Positions 8,957-41,537 are shown, counted from the stretch's first letter. The stretch is 64,000 nucleotides of DNA from a virus (IMGVR_UViG_3300038443_000233:1-64000); one strand, 5' to 3'. The notes: generated by a model not told the origin, from the sequence alone. Numbers and translations: made by a program.

Positions 8957-8986
8957 AATTTTCTCCTTGGTTGATTGGAAGTACGT

Positions 8987-9229: not shown

Positions 9230-9571
9230 CTAAATACCCCCAGTCACGCCGGATGTGTTACTTCCGCGCTTAGCTCGGTTTCTGTTGTTGCCTTGTATGG
9301 TAGTAGTACGAAGATTCTCCCTCCTGTTGTCACTCTTGTTGCCGTTGATGTGGTCAATACACATACTACTATCTGGCAGTTCTCCGTCTAGCAACGCCCA
9401 CACAACCCTGTGGCACAGCAGGCGCTCCCCTCCGAGCTTCAATCCCCAGTAACCAGAGGAAGACATGGCTCCCGCCATGTCCCCGGCTTTTACTCCGCCG
9501 CCTCTAGCCACCTTCCACCTAAGCCCGCTTGGTACGTTCGGGGCATATTCAAGGAAGTCTGCGTATTTCAT
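9230..9571 (-). CDS. HNH endonuclease
   Basis: 113 aa with the HNH motif CIDHINGNKSDNRRENLR. Confidence 0.7.
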   Translation of the reverse strand: MKYADFLEYAPNVPSGLRWKVARGGGVKAGDMAGAMSSSGYWGLKLGGERLLCHRVVWALLDGELPDSSMCIDHINGNKSDNRRENLRTTTIQGNNRNRAKRGSNTSGVTGGI

Positions 9572-13072: not shown

Positions 13073-13530
13073 TTGTGTTTCTCCTTTGGTTTTCGGGGCA
13101 TGTAAAAAGCATGCTTTCCGATGGTTAGAATTCGTTTCATCTTGTGTGCCCACGTTGGGTGCACTTTGTTGCTATGAAAGTACGTAGCGTTACTTGCGAC
13201 AGGTGCTATTCTACGTACTTTCGACAAGCGTTGCAACATTTCTTCGGTCGCTGTCAACCTCATGCCACGATGGTAGCCTGAGAACTGGTAAGGTTCCTTA
13301 ACTACCTCGCACGCCGTAAGGCGTCGAATTTCCATCCGGTGCTTGACGACATCATACACGGCTCGTTGGCCCCGTAGCGGCTCACCACGGGCTTCGTCAT
13401 CGATAACCCATGCCATGCAGATGTCGTCTCGTGTGATGGCTGGGGCCATCGGGATGTGCGGCGGGGTTGCCAGCGTGTTCGTAACCAGTGATGTACATAG
13501 CACTACCACACTAAGCAACCGTCTTATCAT
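13069..13530 (-). CDS. SleB/CwlJ-like cell-wall hydrolase with N-terminal signal peptide (candidate endolysin)
   Basis: MIRRLLSVVVLCTSLVTNTLA reads as a signal peptide. The motif EARGEPLRGQRAVYDVV is typical of the Hydrolase_2 (SleB) family. Confidence 0.55.
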   Translation of the reverse strand: MIRRLLSVVVLCTSLVTNTLATPPHIPMAPAITRDDICMAWVIDDEARGEPLRGQRAVYDVVKHRMEIRRLTACEVVKEPYQFSGYHRGMRLTATEEMLQRLSKVRRIAPVASNATYFHSNKVHPTWAHKMKRILTIGKHAFYMPRKPKEKHK

Positions 13531-14117
13531 TTCCCATGCCTTTCTGTATAGCCTGCACCTTCGGAATTCAAGTAGCTTACCACAGCACTGCGGTAGAAGC
13601 AAGCTGCGGAAAACGCTGGCAGCAAGCCGTACTTATCGACGCTGAAATACTTCGTGCGCCTTTTACCTTCACCGACATCATTCCACTGTACCTTGGCATA
13701 AGTGTTTCCTGCCTTGTTCACATGAAATCCGACTCCAGTTTTACCGGACGAGTTGTTCTCGTACATAGCCTTGTTACGGCTGTTCTCTATCGTACCTACT
13801 AGCCTCAAATTGGACGCCCGATTGTTACTTCGGTCGCCGTCTTCGTGGTCAACTTCGTCGTCCGTACCAAGCTCCACTTTGTTCACGATTGCATAGACAA
13901 TCCTGTGGCACTTCAGTTGGACACCTTTGTGCCTCGTGATCCAGCAGCCGGTTGCGTCGTGAAAGTGCCCTACAGCGTCTCCTGCTTTATTGACAACTGT
14001 TGTGTGCTTTCGCCCACGAGGTTTGTCCTTCCGCAGTCGGAGGCAACTTTCACTCGTCTCGTCATAATAAAAGGCAGCACTGAGTTCAGCAAGTGAAAAT
14101 TCAGTGCCCGCTCGCAT
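13527..14117 (-). CDS. HNH homing endonuclease with AP2 DNA-binding domain
   Basis: The HNH motif is CHRIVYAIVNKVELGTDDEVDHEDGDRSNNRASNL. The C-terminus is AP2-like (GVGFHVNKAGNTYAKVQW). Confidence 0.7.
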   Translation of the reverse strand: MRAGTEFSLAELSAAFYYDETSESCLRLRKDKPRGRKHTTVVNKAGDAVGHFHDATGCWITRHKGVQLKCHRIVYAIVNKVELGTDDEVDHEDGDRSNNRASNLRLVGTIENSRNKAMYENNSSGKTGVGFHVNKAGNTYAKVQWNDVGEGKRRTKYFSVDKYGLLPAFSAACFYRSAVVSYLNSEGAGYTERHGK

Positions 14118-16353: not shown

Positions 16354-17733
16354 TTATCCCTGCTTCGCAGCTTCCAGTTGTGCGTAGATGCGGTCTGCCT
16401 TATCAGCGCCCAGTGATTGCTTGTCCGCACGGATTTCCACGAAGATCGGCAGCGATAGCGAAGGCTTCTTACGGTCATCACGAGCTTGCGTGATGTCGTT
16501 CGCTTCCACCGTCACCACAGCATTACCGATCAGTTCCGGGTAATCCCAGTACTGTTTCCGCTGTGCATCCGAGAACCCGGAGCCGCACGCACATTCGATC
16601 AGACCGTCTTCGGACTGGATGTAGATGCCGCCCAGCATACCAGCAGCCTTGCCTTCACCTTCATACACACCAGTGACACGCATCTCCACTTGGAACTTGA
16701 TCTTCAGCTTCACCATGTCCTTAGCAGTACCATCCTTCCACAGCGATGCCGGGTCTTTGATGATACAACCTTCGAGGCCACGTTGCAAGTGCTCTTGGTA
16801 GATAGCGAACGCTTCTTCCAACGAGCTGACGATTTCCGTGAAGATGATCGTGACCTGCTTGTTCTCCAGCTTGTCCGCTTCATAGCGCAGCCCGTCCAGA
16901 CGCTCTTCGTACGGACGGTTCGACTTCCCGTCTTCGAATTCCTGCTGCGTCAGCAAGTCCCACGCTTCCATACGAACGGAATACTTCGACAGGTCGAACT
17001 TCTCTCCGTCCTTCAGGGCCGAATTCAGCAGGCCGTTGGCCGTCTTGCGGTCGAGATGGTACGTGGTATCCCCATTACCTTCAACGAATTGCGTCTCGTC
17101 CACCAGAAGTTCACCGACCAGCACCTTACCCGGAGCCAGTCCGTAGGCCAGCTTTTCAGCAAACCATTGCGGGTATTTCGAGCCCTGACGCGTGATTACA
17201 TCTACGGAGCCGTCGAGACGTTTGACGACGTACGCGAACGAACCATCTGCCTTGGTCTGGACGTAGAAGCGCTTCAGCTTACCGAAACGTTCACGAGCCT
17301 TCGCATCCAGCAGCGAGCAACGTTGGTACGGAACCGTGAAGAACAGTCCGGGCCACGTTTTAAGAGCCATTGTCTCGCCTACGTTCGTCTTCCCCAGCTT
17401 ACGGCTAACCATCATGGCAAGCAAATCCCGACCTTCCGCGTTCAACGCTGCTGCGTGTCCAGCAAGACGATTACTTGCTTCGCTTCCAGTGAATACGCGA
17501 TTCGACAGATGCTCCATGAAGCGAAGGTCCGCTACGCCGAATTCTGTCGTGCCCTGATGCAGTTTTTCGTAACCTTTCGGCAGCTTCGACTGGTAGTAGT
17601 TGATAGCAGGATCGAGCGTGGCTCTCACGAACTCTTTCAGCAGTTCGTTGCCCTTATGACTGTCAAGGATGGCTTGTTTTTCCAGCGTACCGCTTGCGTC
17701 ACCTAGTTGTTTGATGATGTCATGCAGTTTCAT
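16354..17733 (-). CDS. ATP-dependent DNA ligase
   Basis: Motif I is KADGSF, motif IV is EGCIIK and motif V is MVKLKIK. The start MKLHDII follows the conserved leader. A promoter (TTGACA-17-GAGAAT) lies at ~17768-17796. Confidence 0.8.
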   Translation of the reverse strand: MKLHDIIKQLGDASGTLEKQAILDSHKGNELLKEFVRATLDPAINYYQSKLPKGYEKLHQGTTEFGVADLRFMEHLSNRVFTGSEASNRLAGHAAALNAEGRDLLAMMVSRKLGKTNVGETMALKTWPGLFFTVPYQRCSLLDAKARERFGKLKRFYVQTKADGSFAYVVKRLDGSVDVITRQGSKYPQWFAEKLAYGLAPGKVLVGELLVDETQFVEGNGDTTYHLDRKTANGLLNSALKDGEKFDLSKYSVRMEAWDLLTQQEFEDGKSNRPYEERLDGLRYEADKLENKQVTIIFTEIVSSLEEAFAIYQEHLQRGLEGCIIKDPASLWKDGTAKDMVKLKIKFQVEMRVTGVYEGEGKAAGMLGGIYIQSEDGLIECACGSGFSDAQRKQYWDYPELIGNAVVTVEANDITQARDDRKKPSLSLPIFVEIRADKQSLGADKADRIYAQLEAAKQG

Positions 17734-17829
17734 ATTGTTCTCTCCTTGGTTGGTTGGTGTGATTCGCATTCTCCACGAAAAATTTTTCCGTGTCAAGCAG
17801 GTAGTGCTACTTATTTTCGCTCCCGGACA

Positions 17830-17904
17830 TTTCTCGGATTTGCTTTTGGAAATCAAAAGTCAGATTTTCAAGCCGGGATGGGGAAATTTTCACTTCTTTC
17901 TTAT
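17830..17904. repeat. direct repeat copy 1 (~75 bp) containing hairpin cttttgGaaatcaaaag
   Basis: ~88% identical to the copy at ~21794-21868. Confidence 0.8.
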
Positions 17905-18568
17905 ATAGGCAGCTCTGCCAACATACAGAACACCCTACTATGTTGCTTACCGTCGCCAAATCTTTAGGTAAAGCAACTCCCTTCCCTATGATTGTTTCTC
18001 ATAAGAAATGTTGCATACTATGTTGTGTTTTTACTACGTTTTCTCTATATTCCCTCCGTTTAGGCAAAGCAGCAGCTAGGAAACCTTACATTTCCTAGCT
18101 TTTGCACAACTTTTAAGCAGAAAATCAGCGTTTCAGAGAGCGGGTAATCTTCCACCCACTTCTCATTTTACACGTTTCCGTTCAGTTCTGCATGCCTTGT
18201 AATTAAAAATACTGTATGCATGAACAGCACTACGTACATACCATGTCACAAAGTTGTAATATATTTACGTAACAATCTACGTAACACTAGCTTCTTTCCT
18301 ACGTAACTTATTGATTTGTAGGAACACACCTACGTACGTAAGGTAGATAGGACGGAAGAATTGTCACAAGGGAAGGTGTATAAAATTTATTTCAAACATG
18401 TTGTACCTTCACAACATTGTTAGCAAATATTTATCAAAAGAGTGCGTACGCTTGAGATAACCACTTGCATTCTTCTTCCCTACGTATAAACTTTAGTTGT
18501 CCGCTGCAATGCAGCACGAGACAGAGTTAAACCTTGTGTTCACTTTCTTTCTATATAGGAGTTACATC

Positions 18569-19444
18569 ATGGCTACCGACATCCTCTGCCGCTTTGATCC
18601 AGCTCAACAAACCCCGGTTGTTTTCCTGCGCGACAGCATCAACGGTAACAAGATTCAAGTGTGGAAAGGCACTGGCAAACCGGAATATATGCCGCTGGAC
18701 TACTACAAGATGACTTCCCCGCTGTCCGCTGATGACGAGCGTGTTCTGATGGAACGCTTCAAACAAGCTACTGGCAAGCAGGATCAGGTAATTCGTATCA
18801 CGCACCGTATGCCGCGTACGTCTCGTCCGCTTCCTAACATGCTGGCTCCGCAATCGGCTCCGTCTAGCGTTGTGAGCGAGGATAAGCAACCTCTGGCAAC
18901 GCAGCGTAAGAGCACTGCCAAGCCAATCGATGCACAAAACGCCCCTAACGTCCCTACAGGCGATTTGCCAAAAGAGGGCGAGGTTCCAGCCCCAATGCCC
19001 GCCGCAACGGCTCCTACGCCCGTTCCTGTCGATCCTAACGAGCCTCCTAGCGCTGCGATGTTCCGCCGTATCAAGGAACTGAACGCACGCATGGCAGAAC
19101 TGTCGGCCACGATCCAGAACGCTACCACGGATTACGAAGCAGCGAAACAGGCATGTAAAGAATTGACGGCAGAATTTGAACAGCAGATCGAACGCGAGTC
19201 GCAAGAAGAGTTGCGCAAGCGTAAGGAAATGCTGGCACAGGTGACGGGCCTGTCCGATCCGCTCGCCACGGCTGCACAGGCGTTGCACGACTCGGCAACG
19301 AAGCCAGCCGAACAACCAGCCGACCCTGCACTGGCAGAGCCTCCGAAGGATGAGCCAAAGGCGGACGCCCCGGCCGCTTCGAAACCTCGTGCAACAGGGC
19401 AAGCCCGTCGTGCCCCCGCACCAGCCGGTAAGGCCAAGAAATAA
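18569..19444 (+). CDS. hypothetical protein with Pro/Ala-rich linker, coiled coil and basic tail
   Basis: ORF 18497..19444. The likely start MATDILC follows 'aggag'. Confidence 0.5.
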   Translation: MATDILCRFDPAQQTPVVFLRDSINGNKIQVWKGTGKPEYMPLDYYKMTSPLSADDERVLMERFKQATGKQDQVIRITHRMPRTSRPLPNMLAPQSAPSSVVSEDKQPLATQRKSTAKPIDAQNAPNVPTGDLPKEGEVPAPMPAATAPTPVPVDPNEPPSAAMFRRIKELNARMAELSATIQNATTDYEAAKQACKELTAEFEQQIERESQEELRKRKEMLAQVTGLSDPLATAAQALHDSATKPAEQPADPALAEPPKDEPKADAPAASKPRATGQARRAPAPAGKAKK

Positions 19445-19654
19445 CCTAGCTGTTGTGCGGGACAGGAAAACGTGGTAGAGTTTGACCTCCATCAACTCCT
19501 GTCCCAAACGACGTGCTATGAAAACGTTTTTCGACGTCCCCGCCATCTGGCGTGCTGTGAACCGTCCTACTCCCGCGTGGTATCGTCTCAACGTCAGCAT
19601 CGGCCTGTCCGTGTGGCGTCCTCGCAACATCCTCCGCACTCTTTGATTTTTGCA

Positions 19655-19690
19655 CAAACCCCTTGACGGGTTTTCTTTTTGTCGCTACCA
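19655..19690 (+). terminator. hairpin AACCCcttgacGGGTT + T-run, overlapping a TTGACG-17-TACCAT promoter
   Basis: The stem-loop is followed by ttcttttt. Confidence 0.4.
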
Positions 19691-19720
19691 TACGTAGCAC
19701 TACTTAACGACGAGGTAAAT

Positions 19721-20266
19721 ATGACTACCACAACCGAGTACAAGGGTTTCAAGATTCAGCACGGCATCCCGGCTTCGTCTACCCGCTACTTCGTTCTGGC
19801 CGATGGCTTCAAACAGGAAGGGTACGCAAGCTTGGGCACTGCGCACGGTGCGATTACAAAGCATTTGCAAGCGGAGGCTCTTAGCAAGGCGATTGACGCC
19901 GGTATCATGGGCGATAAGGAAGCTTTCCCGTGGGTGAAGCGGTCGAAAGCAGCTACCAGCGACGACAAGGATTACGCGACATACACCGAACTTCGGGCCG
20001 CTGTGAAAGCTGATGCCGACCGCATGACAGCCCTGTTGCGTTACTACGGGCTTGTTGATATGACTGGCTTCCCTTGTCAGACCGACAAACGGAGCCGTAA
20101 CCAACGCGAAGGCGGGTATGCTGGCACGGCTAGGCTCTACCAGATTCTTCCGGATGGCACTAGCAAGAGGCTTCGCAAGGGGCATCTTCGGGCGGGTAAC
20201 GGACGGTACATTCTAAGTCTCAGGGATCAGGCCCGTAATCTGGAACTGTCGGACCAAGGCGAATAA
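19721..20266 (+). CDS. hypothetical protein
   Basis: ORF 19679..20266. The start MTTTTEY follows an 'aggtaaat' RBS. Confidence 0.5.
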   Translation: MTTTTEYKGFKIQHGIPASSTRYFVLADGFKQEGYASLGTAHGAITKHLQAEALSKAIDAGIMGDKEAFPWVKRSKAATSDDKDYATYTELRAAVKADADRMTALLRYYGLVDMTGFPCQTDKRSRNQREGGYAGTARLYQILPDGTSKRLRKGHLRAGNGRYILSLRDQARNLELSDQGE

Positions 20267-20309
20267 ACGCCACATACATAACACACAACCAAAACTAGGG
20301 AGCAACACC

Positions 20310-20478
20310 ATGCAAGGCAATTTCAATTTCGAACGCAACACCCGTAAGCTCAACAACCAGCGCCCGCCACGTGGCGAGCAAACGGAGCGGCAACCGCAAC
20401 AGAAACGCGGTAAGCAGCAACAAAACTGGGAGCGAACGGATTCAAAACGTAACTGGGATTCATTTGGAGCTGTGTAAT
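20310..20478 (+). CDS. small basic protein (56 aa)
   Basis: The product is MQGNFNFERNTRKLNNQRPPRGEQTERQ..., with an 'agggag' RBS. The ORF is not in the supplied track. Confidence 0.3.
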
Positions 20479-21043
20479 GCTTCCAGACCAACAAGATAAT
20501 GGTATGTGGCTGCAAGGTCGGACAATTGACCGGAAATGGCACCGAACGCTAGCCGGTAACGTGTGGAACTGCATGCGCAACCGTTGCAAGTCAGGTGAAA
20601 AGCCTGCGTACCTTGGCTGTGAACTCTCTGAAGAATTCAAAGACTTTCAGAAGTTTGCTGAATGGTACGTTTCACAGGTGGGGTACGGTCTGGGCTATGA
20701 GTTGGACAAGGATTTTCTGGCGGGAGGCTCAAAGGTGTACTCCCCGGAAACTTGCGTACTGATTCCTCACAGTCTGAACGCGTTCATCAAACCTGTAAAC
20801 CCTACTAAAACTGATGGTCTACCAGTTGGCGTGTACCTACGACGTGGGAGCGGGACATACCGGGCTATCATTGGCATTGATAATAGAACGCAGTCGCTTG
20901 GTTCGTTCCAAACGGTTGAATCTGCTGAAACTGCGTATAAAGCAGCAAAACGCGCAGAGACGTTGCGTTGGATAGGTCGGCTTGAGAGTGGTGAATTCGT
21001 TGTGGATGATCGTATTATTACCGCTCTTCGCAAGATGGTATAA
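20477..21043 (+). CDS. HNH homing endonuclease with AP2 domain
   Basis: An HNH_3-like N-terminus is followed by an AP2-like segment (LPVGVYLRRGSGTYRAIIG). Confidence 0.65.
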   Translation: MLPDQQDNGMWLQGRTIDRKWHRTLAGNVWNCMRNRCKSGEKPAYLGCELSEEFKDFQKFAEWYVSQVGYGLGYELDKDFLAGGSKVYSPETCVLIPHSLNAFIKPVNPTKTDGLPVGVYLRRGSGTYRAIIGIDNRTQSLGSFQTVESAETAYKAAKRAETLRWIGRLESGEFVVDDRIITALRKMV

Positions 21044-21060
21044 GTAGTGCTACCAACATA

Positions 21061-21095
21061 CGGCCCCCGCTATTGCGGGGCTTTTCTTTTTGTGC
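21061..21095 (+). terminator. intrinsic terminator
   Basis: The stem GGCCCCCGC...GCGGGGC is followed by ttttcttttt. Confidence 0.7.
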
Positions 21096-21131
21096 TACAT
21101 TGCAAGCTCATTAACCTGAAGGAGAATTAAA

Positions 21132-21728
21132 ATGGGCCTTACCGCTGCTGAACGTGAATTTCTGGACAAGCTCTACGACACACTGACGGAGAACGAGCGT
21201 AACATCATGATGTTGGCACTGGATGACATGGTGTACCGTGCTAAAGTGTACGGTGTACCTCTGCGCGACGGTGAAGTGCTGGAAAAGCTGAAAGCAGCGT
21301 TCGTGCGTTACCTGTTGGATTGCAAGGGCGTTGATACCAGCGTAGCAGATAACGGTTTCCCGGCCCTCGACATCGATGCAAAGCTGTGGAAAGGCCAGCC
21401 GATGCACATCCGGGCAAAGAACGAGCGTAAGGTCGTGTATGCCCTTCTTACGCAAGCCGTAGAGGCCGGGTTCCAGCTCGTGGACGTGTACGATGGCGAC
21501 GAACACGAGAAGGTGAGCAACGTCAAGGAAGCGATGGAAGTGGTGTTCAACCTCGACATCTCGTACGTCTGGATGTGCAAGGAAGGCTTCAAGAAACATT
21601 ACCTGATGTTCGTGCTAGGGAACGCGGAAGACGGCTCAGAAGCGCTCGCCGACTGGAGCTACACCGATGGCGATCCTGACGGCTGGAATGCGCTCGTAGA
21701 CGGTTTTGACGCGTCCAAGGTAGTGTAA
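21132..21728 (+). CDS. hypothetical protein
   Basis: 198-aa ORF preceded by a 'gaaggag' RBS. Confidence 0.5.
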   Translation: MGLTAAEREFLDKLYDTLTENERNIMMLALDDMVYRAKVYGVPLRDGEVLEKLKAAFVRYLLDCKGVDTSVADNGFPALDIDAKLWKGQPMHIRAKNERKVVYALLTQAVEAGFQLVDVYDGDEHEKVSNVKEAMEVVFNLDISYVWMCKEGFKKHYLMFVLGNAEDGSEALADWSYTDGDPDGWNALVDGFDASKVV

Positions 21729-21751
21729 CGACCCTTCGGAGATTTTCAAAA

Positions 21752-21781
21752 ATGAACGCCACGGCTCGTCCGTGGCGTTTT
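21752..21781 (+). terminator. intrinsic terminator
   Basis: The stem AACGCCACGG...CCGTGGCGTT is followed by ttt. Confidence 0.65.
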
Positions 21782-21793
21782 CGTATGTAGAGT

Positions 21794-21868
21794 TTTCTCG
21801 GATTTGCTTTTGAAAATCAAAAGTCAGATTTTCAAACAGGACTGGGGAATTTTCGAGTCTCTTCTTAA
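21794..21868. repeat. direct repeat copy 2 (~75 bp)
   Basis: It matches the copy at 17830-17904 and contains the hairpin cttttgAaaatcaaaag. Confidence 0.8.
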
Positions 21869-21947
21869 AGAGAAATCGCCCGATCCTGCCCCGAAAATAG
21901 GCGAATTGGTGCACCGCAGCAGAGAAAGTTGCTCAAAATCAACGAAC

Positions 21948-22056
21948 TGTGGATAACCTGTGGACAAGCTGTGCACAACCCGTCCCGGCCTGTGGGCAAC
22001 CTTAGAAAAGCACGGCCGTTCTGTGGATATGTTTCCCCTGATGCATGTTATCCACA
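21948..22056. promoter_or_regulatory. cluster of six DnaA-box-like 9-mers (oriC-like)
   Basis: TGTGGATAA at 21948, TGTGGACAA at 21959, TGTGCACAA at 21970, TGTGGGCAA at 21991 and TGTGGATAT at 22022 share one orientation. TTATCCACA at 22048 is inverted. Confidence 0.6.
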
Positions 22057-22439
22057 GCCAATAGCCTATCGCCTATCATACTATGCCGATTGATAGGTAA
22101 ATGCTATTCACTATCGATTTTGGTTTTCGATAGCAAACACCGAACGCCCGGACGCGTGCGACAGGTACAGCCATGTATTTATTTTAGGCAACAGTTACCC
22201 ATTGGAAAGAGTTACTTGTAAGTAACATTCCCTTCCATCCAAGCAACGGGACACAATGCCCGATTACCCACTCTATCAGGCTGGAGCCGTACACAACAGG
22301 TTACGGTCGATACCTCACTCATCAGGTTAGACCATAGGCTAGATCGTAGGATGGAACGTAACACTAGCTGGCACGCTACTTGCCCATGCAAACTCTGTGC
22401 CATGTTGCTTGTGTGGTAAGGAATGTTGCTTACATAGCA

Positions 22440-22520
22440 CTCTTATACAAGAGTAGTCTTATATAAGACATCAGACTTAAAACTGATAAGCTATAAGAGT
22501 TAAGTCTTTGATTTGAAAAG
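22440..22520. repeat. AT-rich palindromic segment (CTTATA/TATAAG repeats; perfect palindrome GTCTTATATAAGAC)
   Basis: It lies between the DnaA-box groups and is a candidate DNA-unwinding element. Confidence 0.4.
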
Positions 22521-22537
22521 AAAAGTACCTTTCTGCC

Positions 22538-22546
22538 TGTGGATAA
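22538..22546 (+). promoter_or_regulatory. perfect DnaA box TGTGGATAA
   Basis: Exact match to the consensus. Confidence 0.5.
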
Positions 22547-22642
22547 CTATGCCATTGTGACGTGCTTTGCTTGCAAATTTCACAGAAATAAACAGGACGA
22601 TTTACACAAACCGCGTCTAAAGACCATGTTTTTAAGCAAAAG

Positions 22643-22651
22643 TTATCCACA
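22643..22651 (+). promoter_or_regulatory. perfect DnaA box TTATCCACA
   Basis: Exact match to the consensus. Confidence 0.5.
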
Positions 22652-23217
22652 TCCCTATGCCGTTTAAACGCGTTTTGAGGGGGCGCCAATGAGTTATTCA
22701 CACTGGGGTATAGCGGCATATCAACCATACCGAGAAAACGTCTCTATCGCGTTTTTCGGTTTTCTGGCACAGTTGTTGCTTATGGAGTTCTGGCACGAAT
22801 GTTGCTACGTGCGCGTGCGTCACGCGTGCGTGATTTCTCTTTTAGGTCGCGTACGTATCGCTGCCTACCTACCGTGGCGCTGTTACAAATTATTTTAAAT
22901 AGGGTATTGCGGATACCCTAAATCCTAGGCATAATCCTAACCACTGACACACACAACGATGTGTCAGGGAAGGGGCGAATGCCCTAAAGCCTAGCGGCGC
23001 GTAGCGGTGGATTCCAAAGCGCAAAGCGGTGGCAATAGGTAGATAGCCAATAAGTCTGTTCTTTAACAATTCATAACATGATGCCCGTATCGCTGGGATA
23101 GCGTAACAAGAGGGGCATACAAACTAGGCCACATGGGAATGTCGCTTAGGACAGTAGATAAAACTAGGAACCGTTAGAAATAGCGGTTCCGAATTTATCT
23201 CACTGACGGAGTATGAA

Positions 23218-30925: not shown

Positions 30926-31261
30926 CTGGACAGGTAGATGTCCACAACCCAGACGTTCCTCTGGATTTTATACACAGCCCTTTAAACGCGTTTAGAGGCC
31001 CATAGCGACGTTCTCTGTGCCGATGGCACTTTCCCCCTGTCTGAGCCCTCCGGGCTGCTCCTATGATATTTCTGAGCCATTGGCGACCCCAATCGCCGCC
31101 CCCGGCGAGCCGTTAAGCAATCCGTTCGCCCTCCGCAGGTATTACCCTTTTTGAACATATCATCTTGAACGTGTTTCATAGGAGAAATGCCGAGAAAGTT
31201 TCGGCAGTGGGCGGATAAATTTCGCCAATGGCGATGGATATTGCGAATGAGGGCTGTTTCT

Positions 31262-31285
31262 TAAATTTTTTTTTTTTAAGAAAAT
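31262..31285. repeat. homopolymeric T12 tract flanked by CTTAAA/TTTAAG
   Basis: The sequence is cttaaattttttttttttaag. Confidence 0.7.
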
Positions 31286-31467
31286 CAATGACTTAGAAAT
31301 ACAAAGAGCCGGTGCAGCACAACGGCTACATCCCGGCTCTAGGGCTTACAGTTGACGGGCATGGCTGTAAGCATTTGCTCTATAGGGCCAATGGCCCGGT
31401 AGCCCGTGCAGTGACTTGACGTACGCTACACAGCGTAGGATATTCCAAGAGAACGTCAAGAAAAGAA

Positions 31468-31500
31468 AAGCCCCGCACGAGGCGGGGCCAAAGGGTATGC
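31468..31500 (-). terminator. intrinsic terminator for minus-strand operon
   Basis: On the minus strand, GGCCCCGCctcgtGCGGGGCC is followed by ttttcttttc. Confidence 0.65.
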
Positions 31501-35476: not shown

Positions 35477-36148
35477 TCACGCTACCTCTCTGAAGCGGTC
35501 TACGACGTTTTTGACGGACATGGCGTGCCATTCACCGCCACGGGCGGTCTTCACCCGCATGTCGTTCAATTCGTTCGCCATCGCCCGGTAGGACATCCCG
35601 GCGAGGATCATACGCTGGATCATCGGGCGGAGTTTGTCAGCAAACGCGTCAGCCTGTTCCTTGAGGGCCAAGGAAGCGCATGCGACAGCCTTCGCACGGA
35701 CAGCGGCAGACGCCCCAAGAACCTCGCCACGGGCTTTCTTGGCTTGCAGGCCATCCCGTGTGCGGTCCGAAATCATCTTGCGCTCTTTCTCCGCCAAACC
35801 GGCGTAGATGTGCAGCGTGAACGGGTCAACGTCCTCGCCAAGCTGGGTCACGATAGTGCGGGGATTGTCGCGGACGTACGTGAGGATGAACACGGCGTCA
35901 CGAGAGAGGCGGTCGAGCTTGTTGACGACGATGTAGGCGCCGATCTTCTTTGCTCGTTTGGTGATTTCAGCAAGCACCGGGCGCTCGTCATCGGCTCCAG
36001 TGCGGACTTCCTGAACTATTTCAACGATTTCGTAACCGTTGTAGTGGGCGAACAGGCGGATTGCCTCTGCCTGTGCCTCCAGACCGTTTTTCGTCTTGCC
36101 TTGCTCTTTGGTCGATACGCGGGTGTAGCCGATGATTTTCTTCTTCAT
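35477..36148 (-). CDS. serine recombinase (resolvase/invertase family)
   Basis: The catalytic N-terminus is IIGYTRVSTKEQ, with a C-terminal HTH. The start MKKKIIGY follows a GGAAGGA RBS. Confidence 0.8.
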   Translation of the reverse strand: MKKKIIGYTRVSTKEQGKTKNGLEAQAEAIRLFAHYNGYEIVEIVQEVRTGADDERPVLAEITKRAKKIGAYIVVNKLDRLSRDAVFILTYVRDNPRTIVTQLGEDVDPFTLHIYAGLAEKERKMISDRTRDGLQAKKARGEVLGASAAVRAKAVACASLALKEQADAFADKLRPMIQRMILAGMSYRAMANELNDMRVKTARGGEWHAMSVKNVVDRFREVA

Positions 36149-36207
36149 GATGTCCTTCCATGCGGTGGGTTGCGATGGAAGGATTATCACGTATAAAACC
36201 TAGACGG

Positions 36208-38400: not shown

Positions 38401-38475
38401 AGCTGACTTACCCGAGAGGAAAGGGACCATCCTTGTAAGATGGAAGCCGTGGGTTCGAATCCTACAGTCAGCACC
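38401..38475 (+). tRNA. tRNA-Thr (anticodon TGT)
   Basis: Cloverleaf: acceptor GCTGACT/AGTCAGC, anticodon loop CTTGTAA, T-arm GTGGGTTCGAATCCTAC, CCA encoded. Confidence 0.7.
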
Positions 38476-38564
38476 ACGAGCCTGCGTTGCCGTCTACGGT
38501 CTTAATTGATTGAGAAGCGGCATGTAAGTCAAATCCCATTGCACACGGGGAGATAGTGTGCCAT

Positions 38565-38639
38565 TCTGGGTGTAAGTCATTGGTAGACAGCCTGTCTTGG
38601 ATACAGGTCGCAGTTGGTTCGATTCCAACCTCCCAGACC
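38565..38639 (+). tRNA. tRNA-Pro (anticodon TGG)
   Basis: Anticodon stem CCTGT/ACAGG, loop CTTGGAT, T-arm GTTGGTTCGATTCCAAC, CCA encoded. There is one acceptor mismatch. Confidence 0.65.
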
Positions 38640-38663
38640 AGAATTCAGTGCTAGTGTACAAAA

Positions 38664-38692
38664 CTTGACAAATTGTCGAGCGTATAGTAAGA
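38664..38692 (+). promoter_or_regulatory. promoter TTGACA-17-TAAGAT (internal to tRNA region)
   Basis: Same architecture as the promoter at 38096. Confidence 0.55.
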
Positions 38693-38878
38693 TAGCAGTA
38701 CGTAACGAATTTGACGTAACAACTACTTGTACCAGCTACGACCTGTAAGCGTACGTACGCGAATACCGGGCAACGTAGGAATGCTGGAACGTCATACTTA
38801 GCAATCGCAGAAGCGGCGTGAGTTAATCTACTCTCACTGAGGCGGAGACGGCCAAGAAACAGAACTGTCCAAGAACAA

Positions 38879-38952
38879 TTGCGGTGTGGTGTAACGGTTA
38901 GCACTATGGGCTCATAACCCGAAAGACCAGTTCGAATCTGGCGTCCGCAACC
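38879..38952 (+). tRNA. tRNA-Met/Ile2-type (anticodon CAT)
   Basis: D-arm GTGT-AACGGTTA-GCAC, anticodon loop CTCATAA, T-loop TTCGAAT. Two acceptor positions are mismatched, so the boundaries are approximate. Confidence 0.6.
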
Positions 38953-39023
38953 ATCCAATCCCGGTAACGTGTCCGGGTTTCTGCCGGTGAGCCGTGCAGG
39001 GAGAGCAAAACACGATTGACAAT

Positions 39024-39110
39024 TGTGGTGTGAGCGGAATTTGGTATCGCAGCGGACTGTTAATCCGTCACCGAAAGGTAACTGCTGGTTCGAGTCCAGC
39101 CTCCACAGCC
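39024..39110 (+). tRNA. atypical class II (long variable arm) tRNA with anticodon GTT (Asn) - assignment uncertain
   Basis: T-arm GCTGG-TTCGAGT-CCAGC is perfect. Anticodon stem GCGGA/TCCGT, loop CTGTTAA. The 15-nt variable arm folds as ACC-GAAA-GGT. The acceptor has a T-T mismatch. Confidence 0.45.
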
Positions 39111-39160
39111 AAGTTGAGAGTTAGCTGATAGCTCATGTCCAAAAATCAGCACGAACATAA

Positions 39161-39235
39161 TGGCTCTATCGTATAGTGGTTATTACGCCGGATTGTCGAT
39201 CCGAGCACGGGAGTTCAATTCTCCCTAGAGTCGCC
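39161..39235 (+). tRNA. tRNA-Asp (anticodon GTC)
   Basis: Acceptor GGCTCTA/TAGAGTC, anticodon loop TTGTCGA, T-loop TTCAATT, CCA encoded. Confidence 0.7.
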
Positions 39236-39251
39236 AGAATAGGACTAGACG

Positions 39252-39649
39252 TGAACACAACAAACATCGGAGACATCACTGAGCAAGGCTTTGTTCTACG
39301 GTGTTTGGAAAAAGAGATACCGATACTTCGTCCCGTAGGTAACAATCTACCGTACGACTTCGTGATTGAATATGAAGGCGCTCTCCGCAAGGTGCAAGTT
39401 AAGACGGGCCGGAAGGCCGCTTACGAAGGTTCGTACATATTCAACACACGTTCAACGTCGAAGAATTTTAATGAGGTAGTGCAGAAAACTTACGAAGGTA
39501 AGATCGACTACTTCGCAGTACAGTTCAGGGACCACTCCCGCGAATTCTATCTGATTCCGGTAGGGGACACAGGGACCAATGCTACCACTCTGTACCTTGG
39601 CGATAATCCTCGTCCGGGGCAGAATGTAGGCTCCAAGTACAAGTTTTAA
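39252..39649 (+). CDS. putative nuclease-fold protein (PD-(D/E)XK-like; free-standing/homing endonuclease candidate) embedded in tRNA array
   Basis: Track ORF 39176..39649 overlaps tRNA-Asp. The plausible start is GTG at ~39252 after AGGA. PYDFVIEYEG...RKVQVK resembles a PD-(D/E)XK core. The assignment is tentative. Confidence 0.35.
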
Positions 39650-39655
39650 GAATAT

Positions 39656-39728
39656 GCGGCCTACCTACTGGGATAGGGCTTTGCCTTCCAAGCAAATGAA
39701 AACGGTTCGAATCCGTTAGGCCGCTCCA
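39656..39728 (+). tRNA. tRNA-Gly (anticodon TCC)
   Basis: Acceptor GCGGCCT/AGGCCGC is perfect. Anticodon stem TTTGC/GCAAA, loop CTTCCAA. T-arm AACGG-TTCGAAT-CCGTT. Confidence 0.75.
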
Positions 39729-39830
39729 AGTTCCCCGACAAGGAACAGCAGCTCGTAACAGAGCTTCGCTACGTTAGTTTCGTAAAACTCAGGTTGGTAC
39801 GTACCTGTCAGTAATCGTACCACGAACATT

Positions 39831-39907
39831 GGGCAAGTGACGGAATTGGTTTACGTGCTACTCTTAGAAAGTAGATTTTGTGGGTTCGAGTCCCACCTTG
39901 CCTACCA
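39831..39907 (+). tRNA. class I tRNA with anticodon TAG (would read CUA/Leu) - atypical
   Basis: Acceptor GGGCAAG/CTTGCCT, anticodon stem CTACT/AGTAG, loop CTTAGAA. Short 5-nt variable arm. T-arm GTGGG-TTCGAGT-CCCAC. Confidence 0.55.
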
Positions 39908-39912
39908 GTCAG

Positions 39913-39950
39913 GGATGTCGTCGCAGGTTCGATTCCTGCCGCTTAAAACC
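39913..39950 (+). other. orphan tRNA 3'-half-like element (perfect T-arm GCAGG-TTCGATT-CCTGC without matching 5' half)
   Basis: It follows the previous tRNA immediately. An orphan canonical D-arm-like 5' half (TAGCTCAGTCGGTAGAGCG) lies downstream at ~39957-40000. Confidence 0.35.
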
Positions 39951-39999
39951 TTAAGTGGTCTAGCGTAGCTCAGTCGGTAGAGCGGTCCCACATTACAAC

Positions 40000-40082
40000 G
40001 TGCGAGTGGCTTGGGTAAATCGGTACAGCCAGTAGGCTCAAACCCTACGCTTTTGTCGGTTCGAATCCGGCCTTGCATACCA
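40000..40082 (+). tRNA. tRNA-like, anticodon CAA (Leu?) with irregular D-region
   Basis: Anticodon arm GTAGG-CTCAAAC-CCTAC is perfect. T-arm GTCGG-TTCGAAT-CCGGC. Acceptor GTGCGAG/CTTGCAT pairs with two G-U wobbles. The D-arm is unusually long. Confidence 0.4.
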
Positions 40083-40093
40083 AGCAGTACAAT

Positions 40094-40167
40094 GGTGACG
40101 ATAGTGTAATGGGAGCATTGCTGTCTGTGAAACAGCAGGAATGGGATCGAAACCCAGCGTCACACCA
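40094..40167 (+). tRNA. tRNA-His (anticodon GTG)
   Basis: Anticodon stem GCTGT/ACAGC, loop CTGTGAA. An extra 5' G is consistent with the His G-1 identity element. Confidence 0.65.
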
Positions 40168-40309
40168 AATTTATTTACTCATACGTGGGTTCCTAGTACG
40201 GGGGTTCGAGTCCCAATGGTAACGGAAGTGGAATCCAGCTACCGCCGACTAGCTACCGGCGAAATACGGCGCCTAGCGAGCGAACGGCGTATGCGTAAGT
40301 GAATTTAAT

Positions 40310-40385
40310 GCGGAAGTAGCTGATGAGGTCTTAGCGCTGGCCTGAAAACCCAGAGATGAAGGTTCGATACCTTCATTCCGCACCA
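40310..40385 (+). tRNA. tRNA-Phe (anticodon GAA)
   Basis: T-arm GAAGG-TTCGATA-CCTTC, acceptor GCGGAAG/ATTCCGC, anticodon loop (C)CTGAAAA. Confidence 0.6.
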
Positions 40386-40395
40386 GACGAACAAC

Positions 40396-40487
40396 GCGTG
40401 TAAGCCGAATATTGGTTAAGTCGGCGCTGACTGTAAATCAGTAGTGGGCTCGACCCGGTGGAGGTTCAATTCCTTCTGCACGCACCA
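40396..40487 (+). tRNA. tRNA-Tyr (anticodon GTA), class II
   Basis: Anticodon stem GCTGA/TCAGT, loop CTGTAAA. The variable arm is 17 nt. Acceptor GCGTGTA/TGCACGC. Confidence 0.7.
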
Positions 40488-40493
40488 TACAGT

Positions 40494-40570
40494 GTTCCAT
40501 TCGACTTCTGGTTGAGGTCAGCGTCCTTTCAAGTCGCGCAGGCTCGGTTCAAATCCGGCATGGAACTCCA
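40494..40570 (+). tRNA. tRNA-Glu (anticodon TTC)
   Basis: Acceptor GTTCCAT/ATGGAAC is perfect. D-stem GACT/GGTC. Anticodon loop CTTTCAA. Confidence 0.7.
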
Positions 40571-40577
40571 AAACAAT

Positions 40578-40652
40578 GCTTGGTTAATTCAGCGGTAGAA
40601 AATCATCCTTACAAGGTGATAGTCGTTGGTTCGAATCCAACACCAAGTACCA
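40578..40652 (+). tRNA. tRNA-Val (anticodon TAC)
   Basis: T-arm GTTGG-TTCGAAT-CCAAC. Anticodon stem TCATC/GGTGA, loop CTTACAA. Confidence 0.7.
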
Positions 40653-40658
40653 AGATAT

Positions 40659-40733
40659 GGGCTGGAGCGTAGGTTACGCTGGCCTCCCTTGCACGGAGCG
40701 CTGATCGGAGTTCGATTCTCCACTGGTCCACCA
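40659..40733 (+). tRNA. tRNA-Ala (anticodon TGC)
   Basis: The G3:U70 wobble in the acceptor is the Ala identity element. D-stem AGCG/CGCT. Anticodon loop CTTGCAC. Confidence 0.8.
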
Positions 40734-40800
40734 GAGTAGAAGCGTGGAACAACACAAAGCTACGGCTAATAACGGCTGCTGCGTGCCACGCTCAATGAAC

Positions 40801-40874
40801 CGCCGCATGGCAGAGTGACTATGTACTTGCCTGCAAAGCTTGGGAGATTGGTTAAAATCCAATTGCGGCGTCCA
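40801..40874 (+). tRNA. tRNA (isotype unresolved; possible Cys GCA)
   Basis: Acceptor CGCCGCA/TGCGGCG is perfect and T-arm ATTGG-TTAAAAT-CCAAT is perfect. The D and anticodon arms are poorly paired in my manual fold. Confidence 0.5.
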
Positions 40875-40881
40875 AGACAAT

Positions 40882-40954
40882 ACGTGATCCGAGGGATATC
40901 GGCTCTGGCGCTACGAACGCTGGCTGGGTGGTTCGACTCCATCATTACGTGCCA
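40882..40954 (+). tRNA. tRNA-Arg (anticodon ACG)
   Basis: Anticodon stem TGGCG/CGCTG, loop CTACGAA. T-arm GGTGG-TTCGACT-CCATC. Acceptor ACGTGAT/ATTACGT. Confidence 0.7.
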
Positions 40955-40956
40955 TA

Positions 40957-41030
40957 TAATCTGCTACTTACCTTCACCCTGAATTGACAGGGCATTCGCG
41001 GAAGGGGAGCCACGTAGGTAGCAGATTATA
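40957..41030 (+). other. long imperfect hairpin (TATAATCTGCTACTTACC ... GGTAGGTAGCAGATTATA) with structured 42-nt loop
   Basis: A ~17-bp inverted repeat lying between tRNA-Arg and tRNA-Ser. Confidence 0.4.
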
Positions 41031-41031
41031 T

Positions 41032-41121
41032 GGAAGATTAACCAGCCGGGGCGCTGGCGGGCTTTGCTAAAGCTTTGGTGCGTGTCGAGCGCATGGCAGT
41101 CGGGATGTCAATCTTCCGCCA
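41032..41121 (+). tRNA. tRNA-Ser (anticodon GCT), class II, 90 nt
   Basis: Acceptor GGAAGAT(T)/(A)ATCTTCC + G + CCA. Anticodon stem GGGCT/AGCTT, loop TTGCTAA. The long variable arm GTGCG-TGTCGAG-CGCAT has a non-canonical T-loop. The terminal sequence resembles selC, but the anticodon is not TCA. Confidence 0.55.
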
Positions 41122-41229
41122 GAGTAAATTTTCGCTGAACGTGGTAAGCGTTTCCGTCACCAAGCGCTTGAGGGCGGTAGCTAAGTAAAAACAACTCTTC
41201 GCCATTATCGGACTAAATGGCACGAACAT

Positions 41230-41321
41230 GGAGACTCAATCCGATTGGCGACGGAACCGGCCTTGAAAGCCGTGCGAGCTAGAAATAGCCTTGGGAGTTC
41301 GACTCTACCCAGTCTCCGCCA
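41230..41321 (+). tRNA. tRNA-Ser (anticodon TGA), class II, 92 nt
   Basis: Acceptor GGAGACT/AGTCTCC is perfect. D-stem TCC/GGA with a long loop. Anticodon loop CTTGAAA. Variable arm GCTA-GAAA-TAGC. T-loop TTCGACT. Confidence 0.7.
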
Positions 41322-41461
41322 GAGTACCCGTAAGGGGCTTGCTACGTTGCTGCTTCTTAAGCGTTAAAGCAGACTATAGGTTGGCCGTAGATTTGTGTGC
41401 ACACGAAGAACGGCGTGATGGTACTAACGTACATGACAGGTCGAGAAAGATCGACACGAAT

Positions 41462-41537
41462 AGTCCCGTAGTTTAACTGGTTAAAACGGTGGACCGATAA
41501 TCCACTAATCTGTGTTCGATCCACAGTAGGACTACCA
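41462..41537 (+). tRNA. tRNA-Ile (anticodon GAT)
   Basis: D-stem GTTT/AAAC, anticodon stem GTGGA/TCCAC, loop CCGATAA. T-arm CTGTG-TTCGATC-CACAG, CCA encoded. Confidence 0.75.

Follow-up and report, generated by a model that had tools for sequence, protein, structure and literature searches.

In the 64,000-nucleotide viral sequence IMGVR_UViG_3300038443_000233:1-64000 (the whole stretch that we analysed, hereafter the window), a 3.9-kb block of plus-strand genes, isl1 to isl5, is flanked on each side by one copy of a non-coding direct repeat of about 80 bp. These repeats are DNA sites that are inherited vertically, as a pair and in a fixed orientation, in the central control region of a phage family, and they bracket the first rightward operon, which consists of isl1, isl3 and isl5 together with variable inserts. 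An earlier note on this DNA had suggested that the block is a mobile or recombinationally acquired island. Our comparison refutes that view, as the block and both repeats occupy the same locus, with a fixed gene order, in all 14 genomes in which both flanks are present.

The repeat pair and its conservation

The direct repeats described in the earlier note are real and far beyond chance. In the window they span positions 17830-17908 and 21794-21872, that is, 79 nt with 82% identity ungapped, or 85% across 80 columns when two 1-nt gaps are introduced, and over the first 42 nt the copies match at 41 positions. The central 36 nt of the repeat are found at exactly two places in the 64 kb, while a match of any kind was seen in none of 100 shuffled sequences. 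Likewise, a two-block position-weight matrix built from all family copies scored the two sites at 39-40 bits and revealed no third site above 14 bits on either strand of the 64 kb. A minus-strand coding reading of the repeat (open reading frames, ORFs, at 17807-17959 and 21636-21914) was rejected, since the two copies are mutually out of frame and have no common start codon, and the copy-2 ORF crosses the terminator.

Relatives were found by ligase-based searches, by exact-protein look-ups with isl5 and isl1 homologues and by a pattern scan of all IMG/VR contigs. In this way we recovered 14 further family genomes, 13 of them with both flanks (L007-L011, L032, L033, L139, L140, L157-L160) and one on a cut contig (L138); counted with the window, both flanks are available in 14 genomes and copy 2 in 15. 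Both copies lie in the same orientation, 2.7-7.5 kb apart, in each of the 14 genomes, among which identity falls to 55% for the ligase and to 41-43% for isl1. The order between the copies is always leader-isl1-(isl2)-isl3-(variable genes)-isl5-terminator, with the exception of L010, in which no isl5 homologue was detected. Across all IMG/VR contigs, the core pattern of the element is paired in this phage family only and elsewhere gives single matches in unrelated contigs. Bacterial genomes contained 14 single matches only, in unrelated metagenome-assembled genomes (MAGs) or genomes; the match on L151, a contig of a Pseudomonadales MAG, was inspected and discarded as an unrelated chance match. 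More distant ligase relatives (43-47% identity) are without the block, the element and the DnaA boxes described below.

The earlier note had suggested looking for relatives that lack the island and carry a single repeat, but none appeared among the 14 genomes or among more than 20 near-identical metagenome contigs. In all of the latter the block is intact and the repeats are invariant, and the core-pattern scan of IMG/VR yielded no empty site. The comparison thus indicates that the 3.9-kb block is ancestral to the family. The content that varies between the repeats comprises the HNH gene and, partly, isl2; an HNH gene at the position of isl4 is present in the window only, related HNH genes being found elsewhere or inverted in L011, L032 and L033. 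Hence, the HNH gene alone looks recently acquired within the block.

The two parts of the element, an A/T-rich arm and a core, have evolved differently. Core identity is 0.81 within genomes and 0.81 between genomes, in the midst of intergenic DNA that has diverged between genomes, while the arms show an identity of 0.71 within a genome versus 0.54 between orthologous copies and in 5 of the 14 genomes are closer to each other than to any orthologue. Within the clade formed by the window, L007 and L008, the core and spacer of same-position copies are 96-97% identical, compared with 69-76% for the two copies within a genome; copy 1 of the window, for instance, shares 96-97% of these positions with copy 1 of L007 and L008, and 69% with its own copy 2. 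A recent duplication, in which the two flanking copies would be closest relatives, was rejected on this ground, and the sequences indicate that the duplication is old. The cores keep position-specific variants, while the likeness of the arms within a genome may be maintained through gene conversion acting under selection, or because the arms co-evolve with a trans factor; this combination of arms alike within a genome and copy-specific cores fits two sites that must match one trans factor.

Anatomy of the element

An alignment of 29 element copies (A3) gave the consensus TTTTCGnAATCCnATnTGGAAnTCAAAAGTCAGAATTTCnAnnnGGAC-TGGGGAATTTT-nnnn-TTCTTTCTTA. Its conserved part is an asymmetric 29-bp core, GGAC-TGGGGAATTTT-N4-TTCTTTCTTA, on the 3' side of the element, in which TGGGGAA is invariant and TTCTTA near-invariant, with 3-4 free positions between the two blocks. 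The 5' side is an A/T-rich arm of about 45 bp made up of GAAWTTC-type boxes and containing a GGAAWTC-N8-GAWTTYC dyad. The earlier note had pointed out a hairpin, CTTTTG-AAAAT-CAAAAG; the sequence CTTTTG-NAAAT-CAAAAG is indeed found in both copies, but it is not the conserved part, since its arms pair in 59.8% of alignment cells versus 54.8% in shuffles. The arm dyad, which pairs in 79.8% of cells versus 78.0% in shuffles, consists of conserved half-sites without covariation and forms no helix. Moreover, RNAalifold returned consensus energies of -0.5 and 0 kcal/mol for the two strands, with 0 compensatory pairs, and an Rfam search of 17-24 kb found nothing relevant. Because there is no conserved RNA structure on either strand, the element is a DNA-level site and not a structured RNA; nut/put-like elements, riboswitches and small RNA hairpins were all rejected on these grounds (no compensatory changes, the named hairpins at shuffle level, Rfam empty).

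Several familiar kinds of site were tried and discarded. The best match to the IHF motif WATCARNNNNTTR averages 1.9 mismatches versus 2.1 in shuffled copies, and its position is not fixed, which does not support an IHF-bent site; a boxA-like reading of CTCTTCTTAA holds for some copy-2 sequences only. Inspected by eye, the core gave poor -35 or spacing matches to host sigma-32, sigma-E, sigma-54 and sigma-28 promoters. An ordinary sigma-70 promoter element was rejected as well, given that the promoter scanner calls none within either copy, no -10 hexamer with a T in sixth position is present in copy 2 and there are two sites per genome only.

The bracketed operon and its position

The block had been placed inside the minus-strand replication module. 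However, the coding strand turns at copy 1 and does not turn back at copy 2, so that the block lies at a divergent junction between a leftward and a rightward module. The leftward replication module (1-17.8 kb) encodes a family-A DNA polymerase, a helicase, a primase-helicase, thymidylate synthase, an RNA ligase and a DNA ligase, while to the right small plus-strand genes run on past copy 2 to approximately 30.07 kb. The coordinates of the region are given in Table 1.

Table 1. Features of the control region in the window and the serine recombinase gene; positions are counted from the first nucleotide of the window.
Feature	Position	Strand	Remarks
ATP-dependent DNA ligase	16354..17739	-	first gene of the leftward module in the window genome
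Leftward sigma-70-type promoter of the ligase/replication module	17768..17796	-	TTGACA-17-GAGAAT
GTAGTGCTAC dyad	17801-17810		precedes the leftward promoter
Repeat copy 1	17829..17908	+	A/T-rich arm 17829-17874, asymmetric core GGGATGGGGAAATTTTCACTTCTTTCTTA 17875-17903; conserved in 14 genomes
NCR1, non-coding leader	17909..18568	+	660 bp; dyads, hairpin, CTACGTA boxes
GTTGCTTACC..GGTAAAGCAAC dyad	17942-17978		in NCR1
Candidate isl1 promoter	18465-18492		TTGCAT-16-TAAACT; our reading, not called by the scanner
isl1	18569..19444	+	N-terminal small beta-barrel domain (1-85), Pro/Ala-rich linker, long helix (160-227), basic tail; in all relatives
isl2	19721..20266	+	basic; detectable in 9 of 13 relatives, weakly conserved
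isl3	20310..20477	+	55-aa basic Gln-rich peptide, pI 11.3; in all relatives
isl4	20477..21043	+	free-standing HNH endonuclease, lineage-specific insertion; PHROG 953, E=1e-49
isl5	21132..21728	+	acidic, pI 4.6; in 12 of 13 relatives (not L010); C-terminal domain PHROG 4158
Intrinsic terminator of the isl operon	21755..21783		A-tract before and T-tract after the stem; bidirectional in the window's clade
Repeat copy 2	21793..21872	+	arm 21793-21838, core GGACTGGGGAATTTTCGAGTCTCTTCTTA 21839-21867; conserved in 15 genomes
GTTGC-N6-(G/T)CAAC dyad	21928..21943		separates copy 2 from the DnaA boxes; recognisable at this place in most relatives
DnaA-box array A	21948..22056		TGTGGATAA, TGTGGACAA, TGTGCACAA at 11-bp period, two more boxes, convergent TTATCCACA
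DnaA-box cluster B	22538..22702		boxes 22538, 22643, 22694; beside the A/T-rich stretch 22420-22530
Serine recombinase	35477-36190	-	PF00239 Resolvase, 237 aa; in every family contig checked

Five ORFs lie between the repeats, as had been claimed, and terminator-like hairpins at 19656, 21065 and 21755 bear out the statement that the block has its own terminators. The descriptions of two of the genes need amendment. The product of isl4, introduced as an HNH-AP2 homing endonuclease, retains its HNH assignment through PHROG 953, while Pfam gave neither an AP2 nor an HNH match at E<=0.01, and an AP2-like C-terminus is only our reading of the sequence; the basic peptide reported with 56 residues exists as isl3, one residue shorter. 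For isl1, isl2, isl3 and isl5, Pfam and PHROGs offer no functional assignment. The N-terminal domain of isl1 (residues 1-85) is conserved and is modelled by AlphaFold as a confident small beta-barrel (pLDDT about 88), with the Pro/Ala linker disordered; a fold search of the PDB returned no significant match for the isl5 model (pLDDT 77) or for isl1, with best E-values of 0.02 and 0.7.

The C-terminal domain of isl5 recurs elsewhere. It forms the end of the first large gene beside the record end in Phobosvirus records (857-2011 in PspYZU01, L243; 447-1598 in Phobos, L244), and in Microbacterium phage records it lies about 2 kb from the right end. This placement near record ends mildly supports an early, first-expressed or first-entering role of the block.

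Sequences beside copy 1

As the earlier note had pointed out, copy 1 stands close to the promoter of the DNA ligase gene, approximately 35 bp upstream of TTGACA-17-GAGAAT (17796-17768). This leftward promoter adjoins copy 1 in every aligned genome, with TTGACA invariant (10 aligned genomes); the first leftward gene differs among genomes, and the same promoter stands ahead of it. On the other side of copy 1, the isl1 leader contains a hairpin, GCAGCAGCTAGGAAA-N7-TTTCCTAGCTTTTGC (18069-18105), in a stretch strongly conserved in the window, L007, L008 and L010, which could be an RNA or a protein site.

The CTACGTA motifs noted in the leader are also present, in five same-strand copies at 18230-18486. 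In the whole window this heptamer occurs 23 times, compared with 5.2 expected (a count reached in none of 100 shuffles), and further copies are located at 8982/8999, 13181/13211, 37326, 48643 and 55767/55800. Copies outside the leader fall within or beside strong TTGACA-N17-TACAAT promoters (37293, 38077, 48610, 55767), which share the spacer motif GTACGTAGTG. CTACGTA is probably the operator of a genome-wide regulator.

DnaA boxes beside copy 2

Copy 2 always lies directly past the terminator of the isl operon and is followed on its right by a short C-rich stretch. Beyond the GTTGC dyad, the boxes of array A begin at 21948, 21959 and 21970, at an 11-bp period, and continue at 21991, 22022 and 22048. 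The same layout is found across the family (15 genomes): two or three boxes follow one another at an 11-bp period and are joined by one or two others and by a box in convergent orientation; the distance from the start of the array to the copy-2 core is 94-126 bp in 14 of the 15 and 196 bp in L011. A second cluster of DnaA boxes follows 0.4-1 kb beyond array A in the genomes with enough sequence. Four of the five perfect TTATCCACA boxes of the window fall within 700 bp to the right of copy 2, and A/T-rich stretches near the boxes are provided by the copy-2 arm and by 22420-22530. The marks of a DnaA-dependent origin, a cluster of consensus boxes with helical phasing, are thus found to the right of copy 2 and not in the repeats themselves, and we regard 21928-22702 as a candidate DnaA-assisted origin or as a putative region of the T5 injection stop signal (iss) type.

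A long non-coding region opens to the right of each copy (660 bp and about 1.3 kb), and the two regions share the motif ATGTTGCT. All four plus-strand copies of ATGTTGCT(TA) in the 64 kb (17940, 22402, 22423 and 22798) lie within these two regions, with another at 18009; they may be iteron-like sites.

Function of the repeat pair

The suggestion, made as an alternative in the earlier note, that the repeats are duplicated regulatory sites holds insofar as the pair is conserved and acts at the level of DNA; ordinary promoter elements occurring at many genes they are not, as there are exactly two per genome. We tentatively propose that one sequence-specific protein, probably phage-encoded, binds both sites, and that bridging or insulating of the sites would couple the bracketed operon with the leftward replication promoter and with the origin-like region that contains the DnaA boxes. 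The presence of the pair in 14 of 14 genomes, the number of exactly two sites per genome, the fixed neighbours and the lack of an RNA fold support binding by one protein, and we regard the proposal as a whole as the likeliest of those considered, though somewhat short of probable. Several points weigh against it. No binding protein was identified, the island proteins include no recognisable DNA-binding fold, and bridging or looping is purely our inference. The distance between promoter and core varies by about 25 bp between genomes, which counts against a strictly phased activator site, and the similarity of the arms could be plain gene conversion without functional meaning. Finally, an asymmetric two-block core with fixed spacing is also to be expected of a promoter for another holoenzyme.

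In that case the core would be a promoter read leftward by RNA polymerase together with some other sigma factor or a phage protein, with the minus-strand sequence TAAGAAAGAA-N4-AAAATTCCCCA(G/T)TCC. Copy 1 would serve as a second, upstream promoter of the replication operon, and copy 2 would give a short RNA ending at the bidirectional terminator, the arm being a shared transcribed leader. The asymmetry of the core, its length of about 29 bp and its two blocks at fixed spacing agree with this, as do the abrupt end of conservation at TAAGAA, on the upstream side of the leftward reading, the tandem arrangement of copy 1 with the leftward sigma-70 promoter, and the hairpin with T-tract that lies leftward of copy 2 in the clade of the window, L138, L007 and L008. 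The CCCCA(T) block is also loosely similar to sigma-32 -10 elements. Two sites per genome, however, do not make a promoter class; the -35-like block fits TTGAAA at 3-4 of 6 positions, and most copies read CCCCAG instead of CCCCAT. In L009, L032 and L033 the terminator has no leftward T-tract, and the would-be leader has no conserved structure. Moreover, the ORFs that were scanned include neither a sigma factor nor an RNA polymerase, and a Pfam search of concatenated small ORFs revealed no sigma factor, RNA polymerase or obvious DNA-binding regulator. We therefore consider a leftward promoter unlikely, albeit worth keeping in mind.

The repeats could, instead, be parts of an origin. The right copy would then act together with the GTTGC dyad and the phased DnaA boxes as an origin assisted by host DnaA, unwinding or loading would take place at the A/T-rich arms, and the left copy would provide a second entry site beside the promoter of the replication genes. 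Such a view draws on the concentration of perfect boxes next to copy 2 and on the conserved 11-bp-phased array, which in each of the 15 genomes starts roughly 100 bp (94-196) away from copy 2; element and array co-occur, and both are missing in the more distant ligase relatives. The cumulative GC skew, too, has its minimum at 19-20 kb, but here the skew also tracks the switch of coding strand. Copy 1, on the other hand, has no DnaA boxes, some 110 bp, including the GC-rich core, separate the arm from the nearest box, unlike the arrangement of oriC-type unwinding elements, and no initiator protein was identified. That the repeats themselves belong to an origin thus seems to us improbable on balance.

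A broader picture would join the repeat pair and the phased DnaA array into one machine, a host-DnaA-coupled control region similar to the T5 injection stop region but in an unrelated myovirus family, where one phage protein would clamp both elements, bracket the first-expressed operon and gate DNA entry, early expression or origin firing. As a single statement, this we hold to be distinctly improbable.

The two copies might also be the borders of a long direct terminal repeat, i.e., recognition or cleavage sites of the terminase, which would make the block a T5- or SPO1-like terminally repeated early region that enters first. The nearest relatives of the large terminase (TerL), PAK_P1-like (41% identity) and Felix O1-like (36%), package genomes with terminal repeats, those of PaP1 and K8 being 1.19 kb long (PMC3652863; PMC4773840). 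The T7 repeat carries CCTAAAG arrays in the same orientation on both sides, T5 combines pre-early genes, conserved non-coding repeats, DnaA boxes and an HNH insert (bioRxiv 10.1101/866236), and homologues of the isl5 C-terminal domain belong to the first large gene beside the Phobosvirus record end. Against this, synteny with K8, in the order terminal repeat, minus block with phosphohydrolase, tRNAs and TerL, puts the junction at 30.1-31.8 kb and not at the island; K8 has no direct repeat at the two borders of its terminal repeat, and contig ends never fall at the repeats. The distance of about 25 kb between TerL and the island, as in K8, was dismissed as a coincidence without backing from gene order. 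We judge borders of a terminal repeat to be quite improbable.

An interpretation of the copies as res-like sites of a small serine recombinase, at which recombination would release the block in circular form, or else serve to resolve or cyclise genomes, appears very improbable. All family contigs that were checked, namely 7 from IMG/VR and the window, encode a Resolvase-domain protein (PF00239, E=3e-25). The element, like the sites of Tn3/gamma-delta, Sin and beta, is a composite site within a range of about 80-120 bp, in direct repeats, with a dyad and accessory boxes, and we take its length of about 80 bp, direct orientation, internal dyad and accessory boxes to be what makes it res-like. 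Nevertheless, the recombinase is not specific to carriers of the element: its family occurs in 185 viral contigs, including many without the element, among them those of the element-less relatives L012, L036 and L168-L177. The dyad arms lie 8 bp apart around an asymmetric inner sequence, a geometry that misfits a crossover site, and no site was found beside the recombinase gene. Recombination products were not seen either, as none of the more than 20 assembled contigs shows a deletion or a hybrid repeat.

Finally, a recent mobile cassette, whose insertion would have duplicated a target of about 75 bp, is highly implausible: the HNH homing-type endonuclease and the gene content that varies from 2.7 to 7.5 kb invite such an explanation, but the block and both repeats hold the same locus in all 14 genomes, an empty site was found nowhere, and the orthologue of each core in another genome is the copy at the corresponding position, with up to 96-100% identity, and therefore the duplication predates the family.

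Comparison with known systems

The nearest described layout is that of the T5 left terminal repeat (IRC-spacer-IRD / IRD'-spacer-IRC', the 'injection stop signal' region), the function of which is still debated (bioRxiv 10.1101/866236). In both systems two related non-coding elements of about 80-130 bp stand a few kb apart around early ORFs, the elements are conserved family-wide while most of the enclosed ORFs vary, DnaA boxes are conserved and precisely arranged, and some members carry an HNH insertion (bioRxiv 10.1101/866236). They differ in that the T5 pair is inverted and encloses the DnaA boxes, whereas the pair in the window is direct, with the boxes about 100 bp outside copy 2. Moreover, the T5 region is terminal, a location rather unlikely for the pair described here, and there is no sequence or protein homology. 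The SRL/SRR motifs of T7, which we checked in the T7 sequence, likewise stand in the same orientation on both sides of a defined genome segment; they are, however, arrays of 7-bp units around a 160-bp repeat, while here a single composite 80-bp element marks each side of a 2.7-7.5-kb block.

In phage lambda, OL and OR are related operator regions about 2.4 kb apart that flank the immunity region, lie by the early promoters and are bridged by one protein; each operator is a 17-bp dyad, present in triplicate and in mirror arrangement. The family described here may resemble lambda in function, insofar as two related sites flank a gene block at a divergent control region. Unlike lambda, it has a single long, asymmetric site on each side, and the two sites are directly oriented; moreover, the phage appears to be virulent, and a repressor was not identified.

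Phage genome context

The window belongs to an uncultured family of phages of about 91 kb that is distantly related to PAK_P1-like and Felix O1-like myoviruses. Neither megablast nor blastn gave a nucleotide match to the region among 50,697 phage records, and a tblastn search of the same records with isl1, as well as a ligase-based search of bacterial genomes, found nothing. The closest proteins belong to PAK_P1-like, KPP10-like and Aeromonas phages, with 47-50% identity for the DNA polymerase and 41% for the large terminase. A series of JGI and SRA metagenomes contains near-identical contigs, the longest measuring 91.5 kb; samples with this phage include SRR35144446, SRR35147322, SRR35145553 and JGI 3300037418. 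The window contains a myovirus-type structural module and 14 tRNA genes. The latter form a cluster at 38402-41537, with the minus block on one side and the structural genes on the other, an arrangement shared with PAK_P1-like phages.

Several further observations concern other parts of the window. Between 30080 and 31800, a non-coding stretch of about 1-1.7 kb marks the convergent junction of the plus-strand early block and the next minus-strand block. It is dense in GCC(A/T)4GGC-type palindromes (GTGCCATAGGCAC, GGCCATAGGCC) and further contains an inverted repeat of 43 nt (30345/30592) as well as two DnaA boxes (30917 and 30968). The gene order of K8 would place the terminal repeat here, and several metagenome contigs end at 31036-31488. 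Contigs of near-identical strains from independent metagenomes break repeatedly at 13161, 16355, 22490, 22650 and 31036, and the ligase gene varies among strains, with versions of 457-471 aa; these recurrent breaks are likely borders of strain-variable segments. Free-standing nucleases other than isl4 are encoded by HNH_3 genes within the replication module (9230-9571 and 13527-14117, both on the minus strand) and by a PD-(D/E)XK endonuclease gene within the tRNA cluster (39176-39649, plus strand), and the positions of HNH genes differ among relatives.

Significance

The region offers a lesson in reading phage genomes, in that repeats around a homing endonuclease gene need not mean a mobile island, a tempting misreading that the comparison of relatives corrects. 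What it defines is a clean cis-element, present twice in each genome and built on an invariant core of 29 bp, in a family known from metagenomes only. The cis-element is solid, but more interest probably attaches to the conserved DnaA array beside it. Among virulent phages, conserved DnaA boxes are known from T5, where their role is still debated. The present family, which is unrelated to T5 but has a comparable layout, provides an independent system for the role of host DnaA in such phages, and the layout also lets one ask how paired non-coding elements organise an early control region.

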